From Escherichia coli (GTDB lineage: Bacteria > Pseudomonadota > Gammaproteobacteria > Enterobacterales > Enterobacteriaceae), in NCBI RefSeq assembly GCF_022846255.1, contig NZ_AP025682.1: DNA of 64,000 bases, one strand, 5' to 3'. How positions within the stretch are numbered: the stretch's first letter is position 1; every line of letters begins with the position of its first letter. The notes under the pieces are model-generated. The model did not search any database and was not told the DNA's origin. It saw only the letters and a list, made by a program, of their open reading frames with translations. This document shows, one piece after another, positions 5,529 to 42,247 of the stretch. Made by a program: the position numbers and the translations under genes.

Positions 5529-5604
<76 letters not shown>

Positions 5605-5639
5605 TTGGGTGGTCTGTGCTTTACAGCACTTTCAAATTT

Positions 5640-5715
<76 letters not shown>

Positions 5716-5872
5716 TTAATCTTCGTCTTTCGAACCGCTACTGCCTTGGCTGCCTTCACTCACCTTAGTCACTTACTTTTGTAAGCTCCCAAGGATTCGT
5801 TCAGTTGCCGCCTTGTCGCAATTCGAAATACTGCGATTGGGTGGTCTGTGCTTTGCAGCACTTTTCAAATTT

Positions 5873-5948
<76 letters not shown>

Positions 5949-16002: not shown

Positions 16003-17803
16003 GTGCAAACCTTTCAAGCCGATCTTGCCATTGTAGGCGCCGGTGGCGCGGGATTACGTGCTGCAATTGCTGCCGCGCAGGCAAATCCAAATGCAAAAAT
16101 CGCACTAATCTCAAAAGTATACCCGATGCGTAGCCATACCGTTGCTGCAGAAGGGGGCTCCGCCGCTGTCGCGCAGGATCATGACAGCTTCGAATATCAC
16201 TTTCACGATACAGTAGCAGGTGGCGACTGGTTGTGTGAGCAGGATGTCGTGGATTATTTCGTCCACCACTGCCCAACCGAAATGACCCAACTGGAACTGT
16301 GGGGGTGCCCATGGAGCCGTCGCCCGGATGGTAGCGTCAACGTACGTCGCTTCGGCGGCATGAAAATCGAGCGCACCTGGTTCGCCGCCGATAAGACCGG
16401 CTTCCATATGCTGCACACGCTGTTCCAGACCTCTCTGCAATTCCCGCAGATCCAGCGTTTTGACGAACATTTCGTGCTGGATATTCTGGTTGATGATGGT
16501 CATGTTCGCGGCCTGGTAGCAATGAACATGATGGAAGGCACGCTGGTGCAGATCCGTGCTAACGCGGTCGTTATGGCTACCGGCGGTGCGGGTCGCGTTT
16601 ATCGTTACAACACCAACGGCGGCATCGTTACCGGTGACGGTATGGGTATGGCGCTAAGCCACGGCGTTCCGCTGCGTGACATGGAATTCGTTCAGTATCA
16701 CCCAACCGGCCTACCAGGTTCCGGTATCCTGATGACCGAAGGCTGCCGCGGTGAAGGTGGTATTCTGGTCAACAAAAATGGCTACCGTTATCTGCAAGAT
16801 TACGGCATGGGCCCGGAAACTCCGCTGGGCGAGCCGAAAAACAAATATATGGAACTGGGTCCACGCGACAAAGTTTCTCAGGCCTTCTGGCACGAATGGC
16901 GTAAAGGCAACACCATCTCCACGCCACGTGGCGATGTGGTTTACCTCGACCTGCGTCACCTCGGCGAGAAAAAACTGCATGAACGTCTGCCGTTCATCTG
17001 CGAACTGGCGAAAGCGTACGTTGGCGTCGATCCGGTTAAAGAACCGATTCCGGTACGTCCGACCGCACACTACACCATGGGCGGTATCGAAACCGATCAG
17101 AACTGTGAAACCCGCATTAAAGGTCTGTTCGCCGTGGGTGAATGTTCCTCTGTTGGTCTGCACGGTGCGAACCGTCTGGGCTCCAACTCGCTGGCGGAAC
17201 TGGTGGTCTTCGGTCGTCTGGCCGGTGAACAAGCGACAGAGCGTGCAGCAACTGCCGGTAATGGCAACGAAGCGGCAATTGAAGCGCAGGCAGCTGGCGT
17301 TGAACAACGTCTGAAAGATCTGGTTAACCAGGATGGCGGCGAAAACTGGGCTAAGATCCGCGACGAAATGGGCATGGCCATGGAAGAAGGTTGCGGTATC
17401 TACCGTACGCCGGAACTGATGCAGAAAACCATCGACAAGCTGGCAGAGCTGCAGGAACGCTTCAAGCGCGTGCGCATCACCGACACTTCCAGCGTGTTCA
17501 ACACCGACCTGCTCTACACCATTGAGCTGGGCCACGGTCTGAACGTTGCTGAATGTATGGCGCACTCCGCAATGGCACGTAAAGAGTCCCGCGGCGCGCA
17601 CCAGCGTCTGGACGAAGGTTGCACCGAGCGTGACGACGTCAACTTCCTCAAACACACCCTCGCCTTCCGCGATGCTGATGGCACGACTCGCCTGGAGTAC
17701 AGCGACGTGAAGATTACTACGCTGCCGCCAGCTAAACGTGTTTACGGTGGCGAAGCGGATGCAGCCGATAAGGCGGAAGCAGCCAATAAGAAGGAGAAGG
17801 CGA

Positions 17804-21465: not shown

Positions 21466-21516
21466 ATTGGGGCCGTCCCCGGTGAAAAGAGGCGTTTGCA
21501 GGTCGTCCTGCAAAGC
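21466..21516 (-). promoter_or_regulatory. guanidine-II (mini-ykkC) riboswitch in the gdx leader
   Basis: Two hairpins with ACGR loops on the gdx-sense strand: TTTGCAGG-ACGA-CCTGCAAA and GGGG-ACGG-CCCC, just upstream of the gdx start. Confidence 0.65.
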
Positions 21517-25340: not shown

Positions 25341-26999
<1,659 letters not shown>

Positions 27000-35385: not shown

Positions 35386-35461
35386 GCCCGGATAGCTCAG
35401 TCGGTAGAGCAGGGGATTGAAAATCCCCGTGTCCTTGGTTCGATTCCGAGTCCGGGCACCA
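35386..35461 (+). tRNA. pheU: tRNA-Phe (anticodon GAA)
   Basis: GCCCGGATAGCTCAGTCGGTAGAGCAGGGGATTGAAAATCCCCGTGTCCTTGGTTCGATTCCGAGTCCGGGCACCA (76 nt); symbol by position downstream of yjdC. Confidence 0.92.
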
Positions 35462-35658: not shown

Positions 35659-36924
35659 ATGGCACTGACTGACGCAAAAATCCGGGCTGCAAAGCCCTCT
35701 GACAAGGCTTATAAACTCACTGACGGGGCCGGCATGTTCCTGCTGGTTCATCCTAATGGTTCCCGTTACTGGCGTCTCCGTTATCGTATTCTGGGTAAGG
35801 AGAAGACTCTGGCACTTGGTGTGTATCCAGAAGTTTCTCTCTCCGAAGCTCGTACAAAACGGGATGAGGCCCGAAAACTGATTTCAGAGGGGATTGACCC
35901 TTGCGAACAGAAAAGAGTTAAAAAAGTAGTCCCTGATTTACAGCTCTCTTTTGAACATATTGCACGACGCTGGCATGCCAGTAATAAACAATGGGCACAA
36001 TCACACAGCGATAAAGTACTCAAAAGCCTCGAGACACACGTTTTCCCCTTTATCGGCAACCGGGATATCACAACACTCAATACCCCGGACCTGCTTATTC
36101 CTGTTCGTGCTGCAGAAGCAAAACAAATTTATGAAATCGCCAGTCGTCTGCAGCAAAGAATATCTGCTGTAATGCGTTACGCCGTACAGTCTGGCATCAT
36201 CAGATATAACCCGGCTCTGGATATGGCTGGTGCATTGACCACGGTAAAAGGCCAGCATCGCCCCGCTCTGAATCTTTCACGCCTGCCTGAACTTCTGTCG
36301 CGTATTGACGGTTATAAAGGCCAGCCTGTCACCCGGCTTGCCGTTATGCTGAATTTACTGGTTTTTATTCGTTCCAGTGAACTCAGATATGCCCGCTGGT
36401 CTGAAATTGATATTGACAATGCCATGTGGACTATTCCAGCCGAACGCGAACCTCTGCCTGGCGTAAAATTCTCACACCGGGGCTCCAAGATGCGAACACC
36501 ACATCTTGTGCCACTCAGCAAACAGGCTGTAGCCATACTGACAGAACTTCAGACATGGGCTGGTGAAAATGGTCTGATCTTTACGGGAGCACATGACCCG
36601 CGTAAACCAATCAGTGAAAATACTGTAAATAAAGCCCTGAGGGTGATGGGATATGACACAACCCGGGAAGTCTGTGGCCATGGATTCCGGGCGATGGCAT
36701 GCAGTGCATTGATTGAATCAGGTTTGTGGTCCCGCGATGCAGTGGAACGTCAGATGAGTCATCAGGAGCGTAATGGTGTACGTGCTGCGTATATCCATAA
36801 AGCAGAACATCTGGAAGAACGTCGACTGATGCTACAGTGGTGGGCAGATTTTCTGGATGCAAACAGAGAAAGATTTATCAGTCCATTTGAATATGCAAAG
36901 ATTAATAACCCATTAAAACAGTAA
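35659..36924 (+). CDS. int: P4-type (tyrosine recombinase) integrase of the tRNA-Phe island
   Basis: ORF track 35596..36924; N-terminus MALTDAKIRAAKPSDKAYKLTDGAGMFLLVHPNGSRYWRLRYRILGKEKTLALGVYPEVSLSEAR typical of P4-like integrases; C-terminal catalytic region with HGFRAMACS...ERQMSHQ; starts ~200 bp after the tRNA 3' end. Confidence 0.85.
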   Translation: MALTDAKIRAAKPSDKAYKLTDGAGMFLLVHPNGSRYWRLRYRILGKEKTLALGVYPEVSLSEARTKRDEARKLISEGIDPCEQKRVKKVVPDLQLSFEHIARRWHASNKQWAQSHSDKVLKSLETHVFPFIGNRDITTLNTPDLLIPVRAAEAKQIYEIASRLQQRISAVMRYAVQSGIIRYNPALDMAGALTTVKGQHRPALNLSRLPELLSRIDGYKGQPVTRLAVMLNLLVFIRSSELRYARWSEIDIDNAMWTIPAEREPLPGVKFSHRGSKMRTPHLVPLSKQAVAILTELQTWAGENGLIFTGAHDPRKPISENTVNKALRVMGYDTTREVCGHGFRAMACSALIESGLWSRDAVERQMSHQERNGVRAAYIHKAEHLEERRLMLQWWADFLDANRERFISPFEYAKINNPLKQ

Positions 36925-37218: not shown

Positions 37219-37731
37219 TCAGTCGGTCCAAGTAGTTAATTCAAAGGTTGTCCGGTAGACTCCTGGAACCAATGTCTGGTCTCCGAGGATTTTTGCAGTT
37301 ATTCGACTTGTTGTCCCAACAACAAATGGAGCGAATCCGGCTCCACTACCTACCTTCACCCCATTAGCAAGGTTATCCCCTGCGTAGTTGTGAATCGGTG
37401 CGCCGTATGAACTAAGGTACGCTTTTGCAGTATGACCATCTGGCCCGGTAAAACTGAATGGCGCCTTCAACGGTCCTGGCGAAGTCTCTCCTTGAGGATT
37501 GCGGAGTTTTCCGAATGTTGGTGTTCCCCTGGTTTGAGTCATATCAAGGTGCCCCCAAACCTCACCATCTTTTGCATTTGTAGTCGTTGGCCCAGCGTCG
37601 ACCCAATCTATTGTGAATTCAGCATCTGATTCAACTGTATGAGTGGCTGTTACTGTCACAGCATGGCAAGTTAGCGCCATTGTTATACCTGCAATGACAC
37701 TGCTTGCGATAGCTATTTTCTTTAAATTCAT
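37219..37731 (-). CDS. secreted fimbrial/afimbrial adhesin subunit (AfaE-like, last gene of the chaperone-usher operon)
   Basis: 170-aa ORF with signal peptide MNLKKIAIASSVIAGITMALTCHA; position after afaD-like gene matches the afaE slot; sequence itself not recognised as a known AfaE variant. Confidence 0.5.
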   Translation of the reverse strand: MNLKKIAIASSVIAGITMALTCHAVTVTATHTVESDAEFTIDWVDAGPTTTNAKDGEVWGHLDMTQTRGTPTFGKLRNPQGETSPGPLKAPFSFTGPDGHTAKAYLSSYGAPIHNYAGDNLANGVKVGSGAGFAPFVVGTTSRITAKILGDQTLVPGVYRTTFELTTWTD

Positions 37732-38025
37732 ACCTTATCCTTATACTTGGTTATAATAAATGGCAAAACATATTTCTATAATACTGCTTCACCACAATAA
37801 ACACTGGCCCGCTATTTAAATACCCTGCAGGAAAACACGAATACATTAAGTCCCCCAACAGGACACATATAAATATTTAAATGCTTCCACCAGTGATATT
37901 TTAATGTACAGTCAACTACAACAGTAGCTGCCCGTTCATTAAACTTAACGTTCAATATATTTTCACAGATACTTAGCTACATATGTTCCATAACAGACGT
38001 CCACTTTTTGATGAAAAGGTGGACA

Positions 38026-38071
38026 CTGCATCACCAATACAAGTTTAACTGCATCACCAATACAAGTTTAA
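38026..38071. repeat. perfect tandem duplication of a 23-bp unit (CTGCATCACCAATACAAGTTTAA x2)
   Basis: Seen directly in the AT-rich spacer between the afaD-like and afaE-like genes. Confidence 0.8.
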
Positions 38072-38288
38072 TGGCTACATACGGCACTCAGTTTACACTT
38101 ACATTACATATGCATTTTAACACATCAACTATAACACCTTTATTTAAGTCTGTTGTGGACCATAGAATATGGTAAATTACAACAAGCAAAATAAAGTTAT
38201 ACATGCTTTTATAAAATAACATGCTATTTTAGAGGGCAGCCATTGACAACTGAATAGTTACTTTATTAGCATAAAGAAATTATGAATA

Positions 38289-38708
38289 TTATGAGCATTC
38301 TCCGCTAACTGATAATATATATTCATCAGGCCCAAGCAGCTGATTTCCGTCAATCACAACATCAAATGTATGCTGCTCAGGTATCCCGGTACTGACCATA
38401 CCTTGCCCATCACTTACCGATGGCAACCATCCTGCGCCATCCAACCTAACCCGCATTTCATTATGACTGTCATGTCTACCCAGTATAATATAGTGACCAG
38501 GAATATTTCCCATTTGTCTGCTATTCATCCAGATATGAAAACTTGTATAGGTGCCTCGGCAGATAATCCTTCCTGTTGCCACCTTCGTACCGTCTTTTAA
38601 CTCGCCACTCCTTCCATCACTGGTATTAAGACTCAGTTCAACTGCCTGCGCCAGACTGGATATAACCACCAGTACAATACCACTACATACTATCTGTATT
38701 TTCTTCAT
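38289..38708 (-). CDS. afaD: AfaD/DraD-family invasin-like subunit
   Basis: 139-aa ORF; strings DGTKVATGRIICRGTYTSFHIWMNSRQ, EMRVRLDGAGW and FDVVIDGNQLLGPDEYILSVSGEC match my recollection of AfaD (GAKVATGRIICRE..GFHVWMNERQ.., FDV..DGNQ..PGEY..SV.G.C). Confidence 0.65.
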   Translation of the reverse strand: MKKIQIVCSGIVLVVISSLAQAVELSLNTSDGRSGELKDGTKVATGRIICRGTYTSFHIWMNSRQMGNIPGHYIILGRHDSHNEMRVRLDGAGWLPSVSDGQGMVSTGIPEQHTFDVVIDGNQLLGPDEYILSVSGECS

Positions 38709-38723
38709 CAGGGTACTCCTTGG

Positions 38724-41312
38724 TCACATACACACAGTGCGCACCAGAAAAATACCAGTTGCTTCTTTCTCCTCTGGAAGTCGATAATTTGCACGGCAAG
38801 AACTGTTACGCCCCCATTGAACCTTCAACTGTCCGGTTTCATCCAGTCCGCTCAAATACACCTCTCCATTATCCCCCACAACCCCTGCCCCACCAGGCAT
38901 TTGACCTTTCTTTCCTTCCTCTGTCACCACAGCTCCAAAAGGCAGGCGAGAGCCGTCACTACGTGACAGAGTTATCAGTGCTCTTCCCCCTACTCGAGTG
39001 ATAAACTTCGCCCGAACCACGGCTCCCTTTGTAGGAACAACACGAGTATCTGTCTGTGATACTTCCACATTTTCCGGGAAAGTTGTCGGATCCAGTGTAA
39101 TAAGATTTTCTTGGTATGGAGATACATGATTCACAAGAGTGTAACCTCTGGTATCGGTCCTAACGCCAGGCAAACTCCCAACTGAAGCGCCATTAACTCC
39201 AGGTGCTACAACCAGAGCAACCGTATCCTCTCCTTTCTGACCAAGAGTGATACCTTCATTGTGGAGCACCATACCTCCTGATATACCAGCACTCATCTGG
39301 CGAATATGACTGCTGTAACTGTACATCCCCGCCAACTCACCATAGGTACCAAACCACCTCAAATTCAGTCGGCTACTGTCTACATTATTTTCACTTCCGG
39401 GAGCTATCCGCTCACTCACATCCCAATACAACCTACGGTCAAATGCGCGACCATTCAAACCGGTTTCGTACCAAGTATTCTGCCCCGTAGTTCTTTGCGT
39501 TTGAGTTGTAACATTAATATCGTTATCTCTACCCCCAATCCACTGCCCCAGAGGAATATTCATCCACAGATTGATACTATCCTCTATATGCCCTCTCTGA
39601 TAATATGCATTTGTACTATAGTTACGTGACCAATTAACGTACCACGAAATATTCTTCCATGACGTTCCATATGACATGCCGAAAGAATCCTGCTTCTGTC
39701 GGTTATGACGGAACTCATCACGGCTACCGTAAAGGCTCATATACCCCAGAGATCCCAGAGACTGATTAAGGCGTAATGTTGTCCGGCGACTCCTGTCCCC
39801 ACTATAACTATATGCACGAAAGTTATCATTTCTAAATGTACTCAGCACATCGGACAATGTGTGGAAGCCTGAGGACGTATACTGATATCTCGCCGCTGTC
39901 AAATCTGTATTCGTAAGTTCAAATGACTTGTTGTAACGCAGACGCCATGTCTCTCCCGTCTCCGTATCCCGTCCCTTCTGCTGACCGCGGGAATGAATGC
40001 CGTCAACCGACACCGCCCCCAGTCTGCCCATTGACCATCCCAGCCCCAGAGCCGCTGACTGATAATGCGATGACATCTGTGCTCCCCCGAAGGCCGTCAG
40101 CCCCCATGGCAGACCATACATGACACTCATCTGCCCCAGCGGTGAATGCTCAACAGCATCATCTGAAGAACGGTACTCCCCCCCGGCAATGCTGTACTTC
40201 ATATATCCCTCACGAAGCGCAATGGCCGGTGTGGTGTAAGGCACCGTAAACACCTGAGCAGTACCATCAGATTCCTGTACCGTTACCTGAAGGTCTCCAC
40301 CTGACCCCGTCAGCGGCAGGTCCGTCAGGGCAAATGCGCCCGGGGCCACCGTCCGGCTGTCAATCAGATAACCATTCTGGCGCACCTCAATCCTGGCCTG
40401 GGTCCGGGCAATACCTCTGACCACCGGCGCAAATTCACGCTGGTTATAAGGCACCATGCTCTCATCTGACCCCAGCATCACCCCACGGAACGGCACACTG
40501 TCAAAAATGTCTGAAGGCGTGTAATCCTCACCCAGCGTCAGACGACTTCTGAGACTGTTAATCCCCCGCTCCGCACGAATATAGGCACTCTCCCACTGCC
40601 CCGGCTGACCGGATGACCTGTTCCAGGTTGTCAGGTTACGCACCCGCCAGGGACCAAGATTAATGCCCGGCTCAAGAGTGACCCAGTAATTGTCAGTAAC
40701 CGATTTCCCGTATCCACGATATTCTGAACGACTGGTATTTGCCTGCCAGTTCAGCAGAAAAGCAGGAATACCATCATCCCATAAGGCCTCCGGCGCTATC
40801 CCCCTCAGTGGCGGGCGCAGGGCCACCTGAGGAATACTCAGCAGCAACTGCTGTGACGCAAACTGGTATGTTTCCGTGGCCTGTGGAATAACGGATAACT
40901 CAGCACAGGCGTCAGCTTCCTTTCCGTCATCCCCGTGAAACAACTCCGGATATTCCTCCGTCATGACACCATAGCGGGCCAGCATTTCCCGGGTCAGACA
41001 GGTTTTCAGATAAGTCTTACCCTCCGCATCTTTCTCCGTACGGAACGCCATGTCCCGCGAATCCACCCGCGAACCGTTCAGGATAATATCAACCGGATAG
41101 ATACCGGGCAGTTGGGCACCTTCTTCAAACAACGTCAGGTCCACCCCCTTTCCGCCACCTTTAAGCATGGAAGCATCAAAGGAGTATGTGCGGGCCTCAG
41201 TATTCCCGGTGTAAAGAAGGGTACAGGCCGCCATCACAGAGAGAGCAACCGCTGTAATTTTTGTTTTTACGCAATATAAAGATAAACCTGAAGATGACTT
41301 ATTCCTGTGCAT
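38724..41312 (-). CDS. afaC: fimbrial outer-membrane usher protein
   Basis: 862-aa ORF with signal peptide and usher N-terminal signature (FDASMLKGGGKGVDLTLFEEGAQLPGIYPVDIILNG); symbol by synteny with afaD-like gene. Confidence 0.8.
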   Translation of the reverse strand: MHRNKSSSGLSLYCVKTKITAVALSVMAACTLLYTGNTEARTYSFDASMLKGGGKGVDLTLFEEGAQLPGIYPVDIILNGSRVDSRDMAFRTEKDAEGKTYLKTCLTREMLARYGVMTEEYPELFHGDDGKEADACAELSVIPQATETYQFASQQLLLSIPQVALRPPLRGIAPEALWDDGIPAFLLNWQANTSRSEYRGYGKSVTDNYWVTLEPGINLGPWRVRNLTTWNRSSGQPGQWESAYIRAERGINSLRSRLTLGEDYTPSDIFDSVPFRGVMLGSDESMVPYNQREFAPVVRGIARTQARIEVRQNGYLIDSRTVAPGAFALTDLPLTGSGGDLQVTVQESDGTAQVFTVPYTTPAIALREGYMKYSIAGGEYRSSDDAVEHSPLGQMSVMYGLPWGLTAFGGAQMSSHYQSAALGLGWSMGRLGAVSVDGIHSRGQQKGRDTETGETWRLRYNKSFELTNTDLTAARYQYTSSGFHTLSDVLSTFRNDNFRAYSYSGDRSRRTTLRLNQSLGSLGYMSLYGSRDEFRHNRQKQDSFGMSYGTSWKNISWYVNWSRNYSTNAYYQRGHIEDSINLWMNIPLGQWIGGRDNDINVTTQTQRTTGQNTWYETGLNGRAFDRRLYWDVSERIAPGSENNVDSSRLNLRWFGTYGELAGMYSYSSHIRQMSAGISGGMVLHNEGITLGQKGEDTVALVVAPGVNGASVGSLPGVRTDTRGYTLVNHVSPYQENLITLDPTTFPENVEVSQTDTRVVPTKGAVVRAKFITRVGGRALITLSRSDGSRLPFGAVVTEEGKKGQMPGGAGVVGDNGEVYLSGLDETGQLKVQWGRNSSCRANYRLPEEKEATGIFLVRTVCM

Positions 41313-41479: not shown

Positions 41480-42247
41480 TCAGCTTTTTAATTCCGATTC
41501 AAACGGCTTACTCTTTCCGCCGTAATCCGTAATCACTGTCCAGCTGACTTTTCCTGATGCACCAGAAGGAATTTCATATTCGTAAGAGGAGTACGGAGAA
41601 ATATAACGATGCTCCTTAACCTCTTTCCCACCAACGCTCAGCTCTGAAATATTAATATAAAATGGTGTCGGGTTATTCCCTTTCAGTTTATTACCTGATT
41701 TTGTCCACTCCACTTTTCCGCCTGCATCCTCCGGACGCCCTTTAACCGCAGGCGGACGAACAAACAGCTTCACACAACTGCTGACGGAAAGATTTACCTG
41801 CAGGGTTGCCTTGTCAGCTTTCTTTTTATCAGCACCTTTCTCTTCTGCCCATCGGTCATCATGCTTTGGCGGAATGCCTTTCACACAAAGCCACTGCAGA
41901 CTCTCACGGTCCTCAGGAAAAACACCCCCGGTACGGACAATTCGCAAACGGCTCGACTGAAGTGCATCCAGACGGAAAAGCGGCGGCGTCACCACAAAGG
42001 GGGCCGGGTCCTTCTGATTCTCTGCCAGCACCTCTGACTGAACCAGCATCGGATAATCCAGGTCATTCATTACCGTCAGTGAGGCCCCCGATGAATCCAG
42101 GTTGTAAAACACCCTTGTGGCCCCCAGATGCAGGGAAAAAACCTTTGACGTAGTCTTCGTGCTTTCCTGGTTTCCGGCTGCCATTACGCCGGAAGCCGGC
42201 AACCCCGCCAGTATGCCAACGAGCGCTGCAAGATGTCTGATTTTCAT
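41480..42247 (-). CDS. afaB: periplasmic pilus chaperone (PapD-like)
   Basis: 255-aa ORF with signal peptide and conserved chaperone core (PFVVTPPLFRLDALQSSRLRIV); symbol by synteny. Confidence 0.8.
   Translation of the reverse strand: MKIRHLAALVGILAGLPASGVMAAGNQESTKTTSKVFSLHLGATRVFYNLDSSGASLTVMNDLDYPMLVQSEVLAENQKDPAPFVVTPPLFRLDALQSSRLRIVRTGGVFPEDRESLQWLCVKGIPPKHDDRWAEEKGADKKKADKATLQVNLSVSSCVKLFVRPPAVKGRPEDAGGKVEWTKSGNKLKGNNPTPFYINISELSVGGKEVKEHRYISPYSSYEYEIPSGASGKVSWTVITDYGGKSKPFESELKS

Follow-up and report, generated by a model that had tools for sequence, protein, structure and literature searches.

The DNA analyzed here, referred to below as the window, is a stretch of 64,000 nucleotides from Escherichia coli (contig NZ_AP025682.1 of assembly GCF_022846255.1). 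It carries an afa-8 chaperone-usher operon on its minus strand, and the features of this operon and its surroundings are listed in Table 1. The adhesin AfaE-8 matched no Pfam family and no NCBIfam family; its identification comes from near-identical RefSeq relatives, in which the gene at this position is annotated as “M agglutinin-type afimbrial adhesin BmaE/AfaE-8”. NCBIfam also returned no family for AfaA or for the ORFs adjacent to the insertion sequence (IS). The regulatory gene afaF is truncated: its homology with all of the single-copy relatives described below ends at ~43342, and an IS3-family element, with a minus-strand segment at 43351–44118, follows. Just past this element lies a full-length match (135 bits) to the isrC family of Hfq-binding sRNAs (RF01387), at 44410–44532 on the minus strand. 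A Guanidine-II (mini-ykkC) riboswitch match (50.4 bits; 21468–21514, minus strand) and three tandem tRNA-Gly(GCC) genes (5529–5948, minus strand) are ordinary core-genome features.

In the window, the spacer between afaD and afaE-8 is AT-rich and 557 bp long. A repeat search showed that it contains the unit ACTGCATCACCAATACAAGTTTA twice, head to tail, as exact 23-nt copies. Tandem Repeats Finder reported the same repeat at 38025–38071, with a period of 23, 2.0 copies, 100% matches, zero indels, and a score of 94. The repeat can equally be read as two exact copies of CTGCATCACCAATACAAGTTTAA (38026–38048 and 38049–38071), which is the register used in a prior sequence-only reading of this DNA. 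That reading had described a perfect 23-bp tandem duplication in the AT-rich afaD-afaE spacer. The description is borne out by Tandem Repeats Finder, the exact-copy search, and shuffled controls, and the placement is correct, since the AfaD Pfam match and the BmaE/AfaE-8 annotation of relatives flank the repeat. When up to three mismatches were allowed, CTGCATCACCAATACAAGTTTAA had no other match in the 64-kb window, the afaF-afaA regulatory region included, and none of 100 shuffles gave any match. At the base composition of the spacer (32.7% GC), about 2e-8 perfect 23+23 tandem pairs would be expected by chance in 64 kb, and the duplication is the only perfect tandem repeat of the window. Two further short tandem repeats, at 17755–17790 (18 bp × 2) and 25347–25382 (9 bp × 4), are imperfect, both with 88% identity.

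Table 1 Features of the afa-8 region in the window; labels beginning with L denote sequences used for comparison
Feature	Position	Strand	Remarks
tRNA-Phe	35386–35461		Integration site of the afa-8 island, on the plus strand; beside dsbD-cutA-dcuA-aspA
Integrase gene	~35659–36924		Next to tRNA-Phe
afaE-8/bmaE	37219–37731	−	Adhesin, 170 aa; rare allele WP_137493805.1; relatives' annotation
afaR sigma-E promoter	37940–37973	+	−35 TAAACTT (37940–37946), 16-bp spacer, −10 TCACA (37963–37967), 6-bp discriminator
afaR	37974–38230	+	AfaR sRNA, 257 nt; Rfam RF02515, model positions 1–234 of 234
Inverted repeat GTCCACTTTTT/AAAAGGTGGAC	37999–38024	both	Plus strand: AfaR SL1, nt 26–51; minus strand: afaD terminator hairpin
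Copy 1 of unit ACTGCATCACCAATACAAGTTTA	38025–38047	+	AfaR nt 52–74, 5′ arm of stem-loop 2; minus strand: part of afaD 3′UTR
Copy 2 of unit	38048–38070	+	23 nt missing from all single-copy relatives; choice of “insert” copy is arbitrary
Variable sites in the unit	38028, 38034, 38042		AfaR nt 55 (L013–L015, L017), nt 61 (L009), nt 69 (L002, L018)
AfaR seed U92–C130	38088–38126	+	Moved to nt 115–153 here, sequence intact
AfaR terminator hairpin and U tail	38204–38230	+	Rfam model positions 208–234
afaD	38289–38708	−	AfaD-VIII invasin, 139 aa; Pfam PF05775, 86 bits; relatives' annotation
afaD 5′UTR/RBS	38708–38745	−	AfaR target, G−37 to A+1 (PMC3664800)
afaC	38724–41312	−	Usher; Pfam Usher, PapC_N, PapC_C
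afaB	41480–42247	−	Chaperone; Pfam PapD_N, PapD_C
afaF	43213–43347	+	PapI/FaeA-family regulator, 44 of 62 codons left; IS3-family element begins at ~43343
tRNA-Phe of related island L023	7380–7455 (in L023)
tRNA-Phe of related island L024	6171–6246 (in L024)		Beside dsbD-cutA-dcuA-aspA

Position of the repeat within afaR

An Rfam scan of the spacer gave an untruncated match to the AfaR family (270.5 bits against a gathering score of 100; E = 2e-55). AfaR is a sigma-E-dependent and Hfq-dependent sRNA of ~230 nt, encoded on the strand complementary to the afaD 3′UTR (Pichon, du Merle, Lequeutre and Le Bouguenec, Nucleic Acids Res 2013, PMC3664800). Its nucleotides U92 to C130 pair with positions G−37 to A+1 of the afaD 5′UTR, which leads to RNase E cleavage and to less of AfaD-VIII, an invasin of pathogenic E. 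coli (PMC3664800). The pairing was validated by compensatory mutations at A110/C111, AfaR-dependent cleavage sites were located at G29 and A66 of afaD, temperature control of AfaR was also reported, and binding sites for AfaA, a PapB-family protein, were predicted near the afaR promoter (PMC3664800). In the window, AfaR lies on the plus strand, opposite to afaD and afaE-8, as in the locus described for the family. The numbering of the Rfam model agreed with that of the published RNA: with +1 at 37974, U92, C130, and A110/C111 all fell on the expected bases.

The AfaR of the window is 257 nt long, compared with 234 positions in the family model, and the excess is the 23-nt duplication. In the Rfam alignment, 31 nt of the window stand opposite 8 positions of the model, in the apical region of stem-loop 2 (SL2). 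The duplication therefore sits inside the already known afaR gene, and its unit corresponds to AfaR nt 52–74; the sequence-only reading, which treated the region as a spacer, had overlooked this gene on the opposite strand. The first base of the duplication directly abuts the inverted repeat (11-bp arms) that forms stem-loop 1 (SL1) of AfaR on one strand and the afaD terminator hairpin on the other. Within AfaR the unit is upstream of the U92–C130 segment; on the minus strand, its bases form the final 23 nt of the afaD 3′UTR ahead of the terminator hairpin. In its locus, and in the sequences of its sigma-E promoter, 5′ hairpin, U92–C130 segment, and terminator, the RNA is like the published one; it differs in length (~230–234 nt there, 257 nt here) and in the doubling of nt 52–74, which gives a longer 5′ arm and apex of SL2. 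By these sequence criteria it belongs to the AfaR family in everything except length. It represents allelic variation in an sRNA already described and does not constitute a novel type of element. The published study, which covered three strains (PMC3664800), does not report the duplication allele, nor was it found in the searchable literature on afaR.

The functional parts of AfaR and its target were compared in an alignment of 22 sequences. The promoter matches the published sigma-E description by sequence, with the discriminator gatacT and a T at −1; it is identical in all 22 sequences and is untouched by the duplication. The seed, U92–C130, has no variable site. The target region in afaD, examined from −80 to +75, is identical in 21 of the 22 sequences and in all carriers of the duplication; the exception, L002, differs only at +73, beyond the G−37 to A+1 segment. 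The 3′ hairpin and U tail of AfaR align perfectly to the model. A generic terminator scan of 37600–38400, which requires at least three G-C pairs, flagged none and missed both published terminators, and a generic sigma-70 scan of the same region gave three promoter-like sites where 4.1 were expected.

On the minus strand, the duplication lengthens the afaD 3′UTR. [quoted passage not shown] Its hairpin starts 240 nt past the afaD stop codon in single-copy alleles, in agreement with that study, and 263 nt past it in the window, where the 3′UTR is 23 nt longer. The sequence after the hairpin, GUCUGUUAUGG, has no clear U tract, and the status of the hairpin as an intrinsic terminator rests on the published RT-PCR results.

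Small ORFs also overlap the repeat (38008–38175, 55 aa, and 37983–38048, 21 aa, on the plus strand; 37963–38037, 24 aa, on the minus strand). We rejected a coding function for them, because the 23-nt insertion would shift the reading frame and the region is that of a validated non-coding RNA.

Distribution and inheritance of the two-copy allele

Among 5,426 complete E. coli genomes, the afa-8 spacer was present in 29 records from 28 genomes; all had one copy of the unit and a spacer of 534–535 bp, and the two-copy allele was found in none of the 28. One copy was also present in 4 PLSDB plasmids, in 10 assemblies retrieved by their exact AfaD protein, and in all 4 JGI metagenome contigs recovered with a pattern that fits both alleles; a search of the JGI metagenomes for the exact duplication junction gave no matches. 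In contrast to these single-copy records, every contig encoding the exact AfaE-8 protein of the window had the 557-bp spacer and the perfect 46-mer, in at least seven samples. The two-copy data sets are GCA_005387665.1, GCA_005387485.1, ENA ERZ929318/Logan ERR2349758, DRR102846, DRR102837, DRR322658, and SRR19238557; their contigs come from NCBI assemblies, one MEGAHIT metagenome, and Logan assemblies. A single copy throughout the relatives, with no difference in expression, had been named in the sequence-only reading as the finding that would count against its proposal. The single copy is nearly universal among the relatives compared; the exception is a small lineage in which the two-copy allele is also present.

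In alignments of 4 and of 22 sequences, the relatives differed from the window by a single clean gap of 23 columns. The carriers retrieved first (L004–L007) are identical to the window across the afaD-afaE segment. The duplication haplotype has seven private SNPs that are absent from every single-copy sequence of the 22-sequence alignment, whereas the single-copy state is spread over many different haplotypes. Because many diverse haplotypes have one copy and the two copies of the duplication are identical, we conclude that the duplication is the derived state.

The carrier islands are found at two tRNA-Phe loci and are 0–7 SNPs apart (Table 1). One of them (L024) shares 100% identity with the window across 12.4 kb, a stretch that takes in the aspA-dcuA-cutA-dsbD flank. 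Another (L023) has the same island at the other tRNA-Phe locus (yqgA-like/speC/nupG/mltC); across 7.5 kb it shows 7 mismatches and 2 gaps. An island at two loci recalls strain AL862, which reportedly carries two afa-8 clusters. The afaF/IS junction is shared by the carriers L025, L027, and L028, and the truncation of afaF is thus linked to the duplication haplotype; this hints that regulation of the cluster may be under relaxed or altered selection in the lineage. Taken together, the alignments show a single derived event on one rare haplotype, which has since been passed on stably and has reached a second integration site.

The AfaE-8 allele of this haplotype, WP_137493805.1, is indexed on 7 contigs, compared with 67–146 for the common alleles. 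It differs by at least 8 residues from all other sampled alleles, and K103, I144, and L149 were seen in no other. AfaE-8 as a whole is highly polymorphic, with 8–20 amino acid differences per 170 aa among alleles (L001–L021), and afaD and the spacer have few SNPs; this pattern looks like diversifying selection or recombination acting on the adhesin. One of the private SNPs of the duplication haplotype lies at 37864, 133 nt upstream of the afaE ATG, where the plus strand has C and all other sequences have T. This position is between the afaR promoter and afaE, inside the fragment that carries afaE promoter activity.

Predicted effect on AfaR folding and afaD pairing

The duplication leaves the promoter, SL1, the seed, the terminator, and the afaD target of AfaR unaltered. 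With promoter, seed, terminator, and target intact, AfaR is probably still made and active, as a 257-nt variant.

Folding of the two forms was compared with RNAfold. The minimum free energy of AfaR fell from −46.4 kcal/mol with one copy to −51.3 kcal/mol with two. In the predicted two-copy structure, SL2 is retained through copy 1, and the junction adds a helix, AACUG/CAGUU, that pairs with nt 93–97 of the seed. The energy needed to open U92–C130 was higher for the two-copy form, 6.7 compared with 4.3 kcal/mol, and a similar rise was obtained at 30 and 42°C. For the internal loop that holds A110/C111, the prediction was more than 97% unpaired in both alleles. Binding of AfaR to afaD was calculated with a cofold partition function, using as target the same afaC/afaD fragment as the published reporter (PMC3664800). 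At 37°C the calculated binding energy weakened from −13.05 kcal/mol in the one-copy form to −10.33 kcal/mol in the two-copy form; the predicted loss was 2.4–3.0 kcal/mol over 30, 37, and 42°C, and differences of 2–3 kcal/mol are within the error of the nearest-neighbor model, which ignores Hfq. If these predictions hold, the stabilized SL2 of the two-copy AfaR would hide the 5′ edge of the seed and weaken afaD binding by ~2.5–3 kcal/mol. On these models, the duplication would most likely have no consequence or would slightly relieve the repression of AfaD. On the minus strand, the afaD terminator hairpin was kept, and a weak extra hairpin was predicted between the copies, just upstream of the terminator.

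Natural variation in AfaR bears on how much the unit matters. Among the 22 sequences, three of the six variable sites of AfaR fall in the 23-nt unit (P ~0.015). All three substitutions, G55A, C61U, and A69C, are uncompensated; the seed and SL1 are invariant. G55A would break the predicted G55–C117 pair of SL2, and this uncompensated change casts some doubt on the importance of the lower stem of SL2. These comparisons suggest that the unit is the least constrained part of AfaR.

We also considered part of the unit (UCACCAAUACAAG) as a second pairing site. RNAcofold placed it against early afaD codons (about +31 to +64), close to the published cleavage sites G29 and A66. This candidate was rejected because 7% of shuffled units reached or surpassed its duplex energy of −16.7 kcal/mol and because better sites were present elsewhere in the operon.

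Origin and consequences of the duplication

In E. coli, short tandem duplications can arise by slippage or template switching beside hairpin-forming inverted repeats. The duplication in afaR resembles such events in its perfect abutting copies, in the single-copy ancestor seen in relatives, and in its boundary at the foot of an inverted repeat. It is unlike them in having only 1 nt of microhomology beyond the unit (A at 38025, 38048, and 38071) and in the length of the unit, which at 23 nt exceeds that of typical microsatellite slippage. We propose that it most likely arose once, in one afa-8 haplotype, when replication slipped or switched templates at the base of the inverted repeat that makes up SL1 and the terminator. 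The polymerase would have stalled at the inverted repeat and then slipped or switched templates, the unit itself being one arm of the imperfect SL2 palindrome; the allele would since have been inherited, moving with the island. This route is a conjecture, and a single shared nucleotide is little microhomology for slippage of the classical kind. The sequence-only reading had offered a slippage product and a duplicated regulator-binding site as alternatives, and the clean 23-bp gap, the identical copies, and the widespread single-copy state favor the former. An origin as the target-site duplication of an excised IS was rejected, since 23 bp is too long and there is no IS remnant; to our knowledge, all IS target duplications are far shorter than 23 bp.

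The reading that we prefer, with a probability of roughly 0.7, is that of a recent, derived 23-bp tandem duplication within afaR that arose once, has been inherited, leaves the functional parts of the gene intact, and has at most a mild effect.

The strongest competitor is an adaptive regulatory allele, in which a stabilized SL2 would occlude part of the seed and weaken repression, and selection would have favored the additional AfaD or a changed response to temperature. The predicted binding loss of 2.4–3.0 kcal/mol and the raised opening energy of the seed point in this direction, but differences of this size fall inside the error of the model, the A110/C111 nucleation loop is equally accessible in both alleles, and the unit lies in the part of AfaR most tolerant of SNPs. 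The two-copy allele has persisted while the island was transferred or duplicated to a second tRNA-Phe locus and up to 7 SNPs accumulated, and it has not collapsed to one copy. This persistence and spread to two sites fit neutrality and would also fit positive selection. The link to a divergent AfaE-8 and an altered afaF could be taken as a sign of selection. However, the truncation of afaF by the linked IS means that regulation of the cluster may differ in this lineage, which would confound any phenotype of the duplication, and the AfaE-8 allele is a confounder as well. Also against selection are the rarity of the allele (7 contigs, compared with 67–146 for common AfaE-8 alleles, and 0 of 28 complete genomes) and its single origin without recurrence. 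On balance we regard an adaptive allele as unlikely, with a probability of about one in five. Its most specific form seems slightly less probable still: a selected tuning allele that would partly mask the seed and yield more invasin, in a rare lineage whose AfaF lacks its C-terminus and whose AfaE-8 is divergent.

Much less probable is a protein-binding site whose duplication would alter transcription of the distal adhesin gene afaE. The idea draws on the AT-rich region upstream of afaE and on the AfaA sites predicted near the afaR promoter (PMC3664800). The repeat, however, is 294–340 bp upstream of the afaE ATG, past the afaD terminator and within two transcribed units. Moreover, afaE has its own promoter, whose activity was shown with the 300 bp preceding the ATG (PMC3664800); this fragment, 37732–38031 of the window, reaches 7 nt into copy 1 and leaves out the inserted copy entirely. 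The window has no further occurrence of the 23-mer, and the unit has neither a GATC nor an Lrp-type motif. The proposed AfaA-binding consensus, CTATATTTT, is also absent from it, the nearest near-match being at 37955–37963 in the afaR promoter. The duplicated regulator site for the adhesin promoter suggested by the sequence-only reading is thus unsupported: the repeat is on the afaD side of the afaD terminator, with the inserted copy outside the active fragment, and it shows neither recurrence nor the AfaA consensus.

A phase-variable contingency repeat with frequent switching of copy number is very improbable, even though perfect tandem repeats can slip and adhesin operons are often phase variable, because all carriers of the haplotype (at least seven samples) have two copies, all other sequences have one, and none has three or more. 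An assembly or sequencing artefact, for which nothing specific speaks beyond the absence of the duplication from the RefSeq complete genomes searched, is refuted by the identical junction in independent assemblies from different pipelines and samples.

The duplication in afaR illustrates that repeats in a “spacer” need to be read on both strands. Its 46-mer junction precisely marks a single rare lineage of the afa-8 island, which occurs in several data sets of human or animal origin. AfaR belongs to the small number of sRNAs for which control over a chaperone-usher virulence factor has been demonstrated. The duplication, otherwise an unremarkable indel polymorphism of an established gene, supplies a natural allele of AfaR in which one arm of SL2 is doubled and the promoter, seed, and terminator are intact; this allele would serve as a test of SL2 gating of seed accessibility, Hfq loading, and RNA stability.
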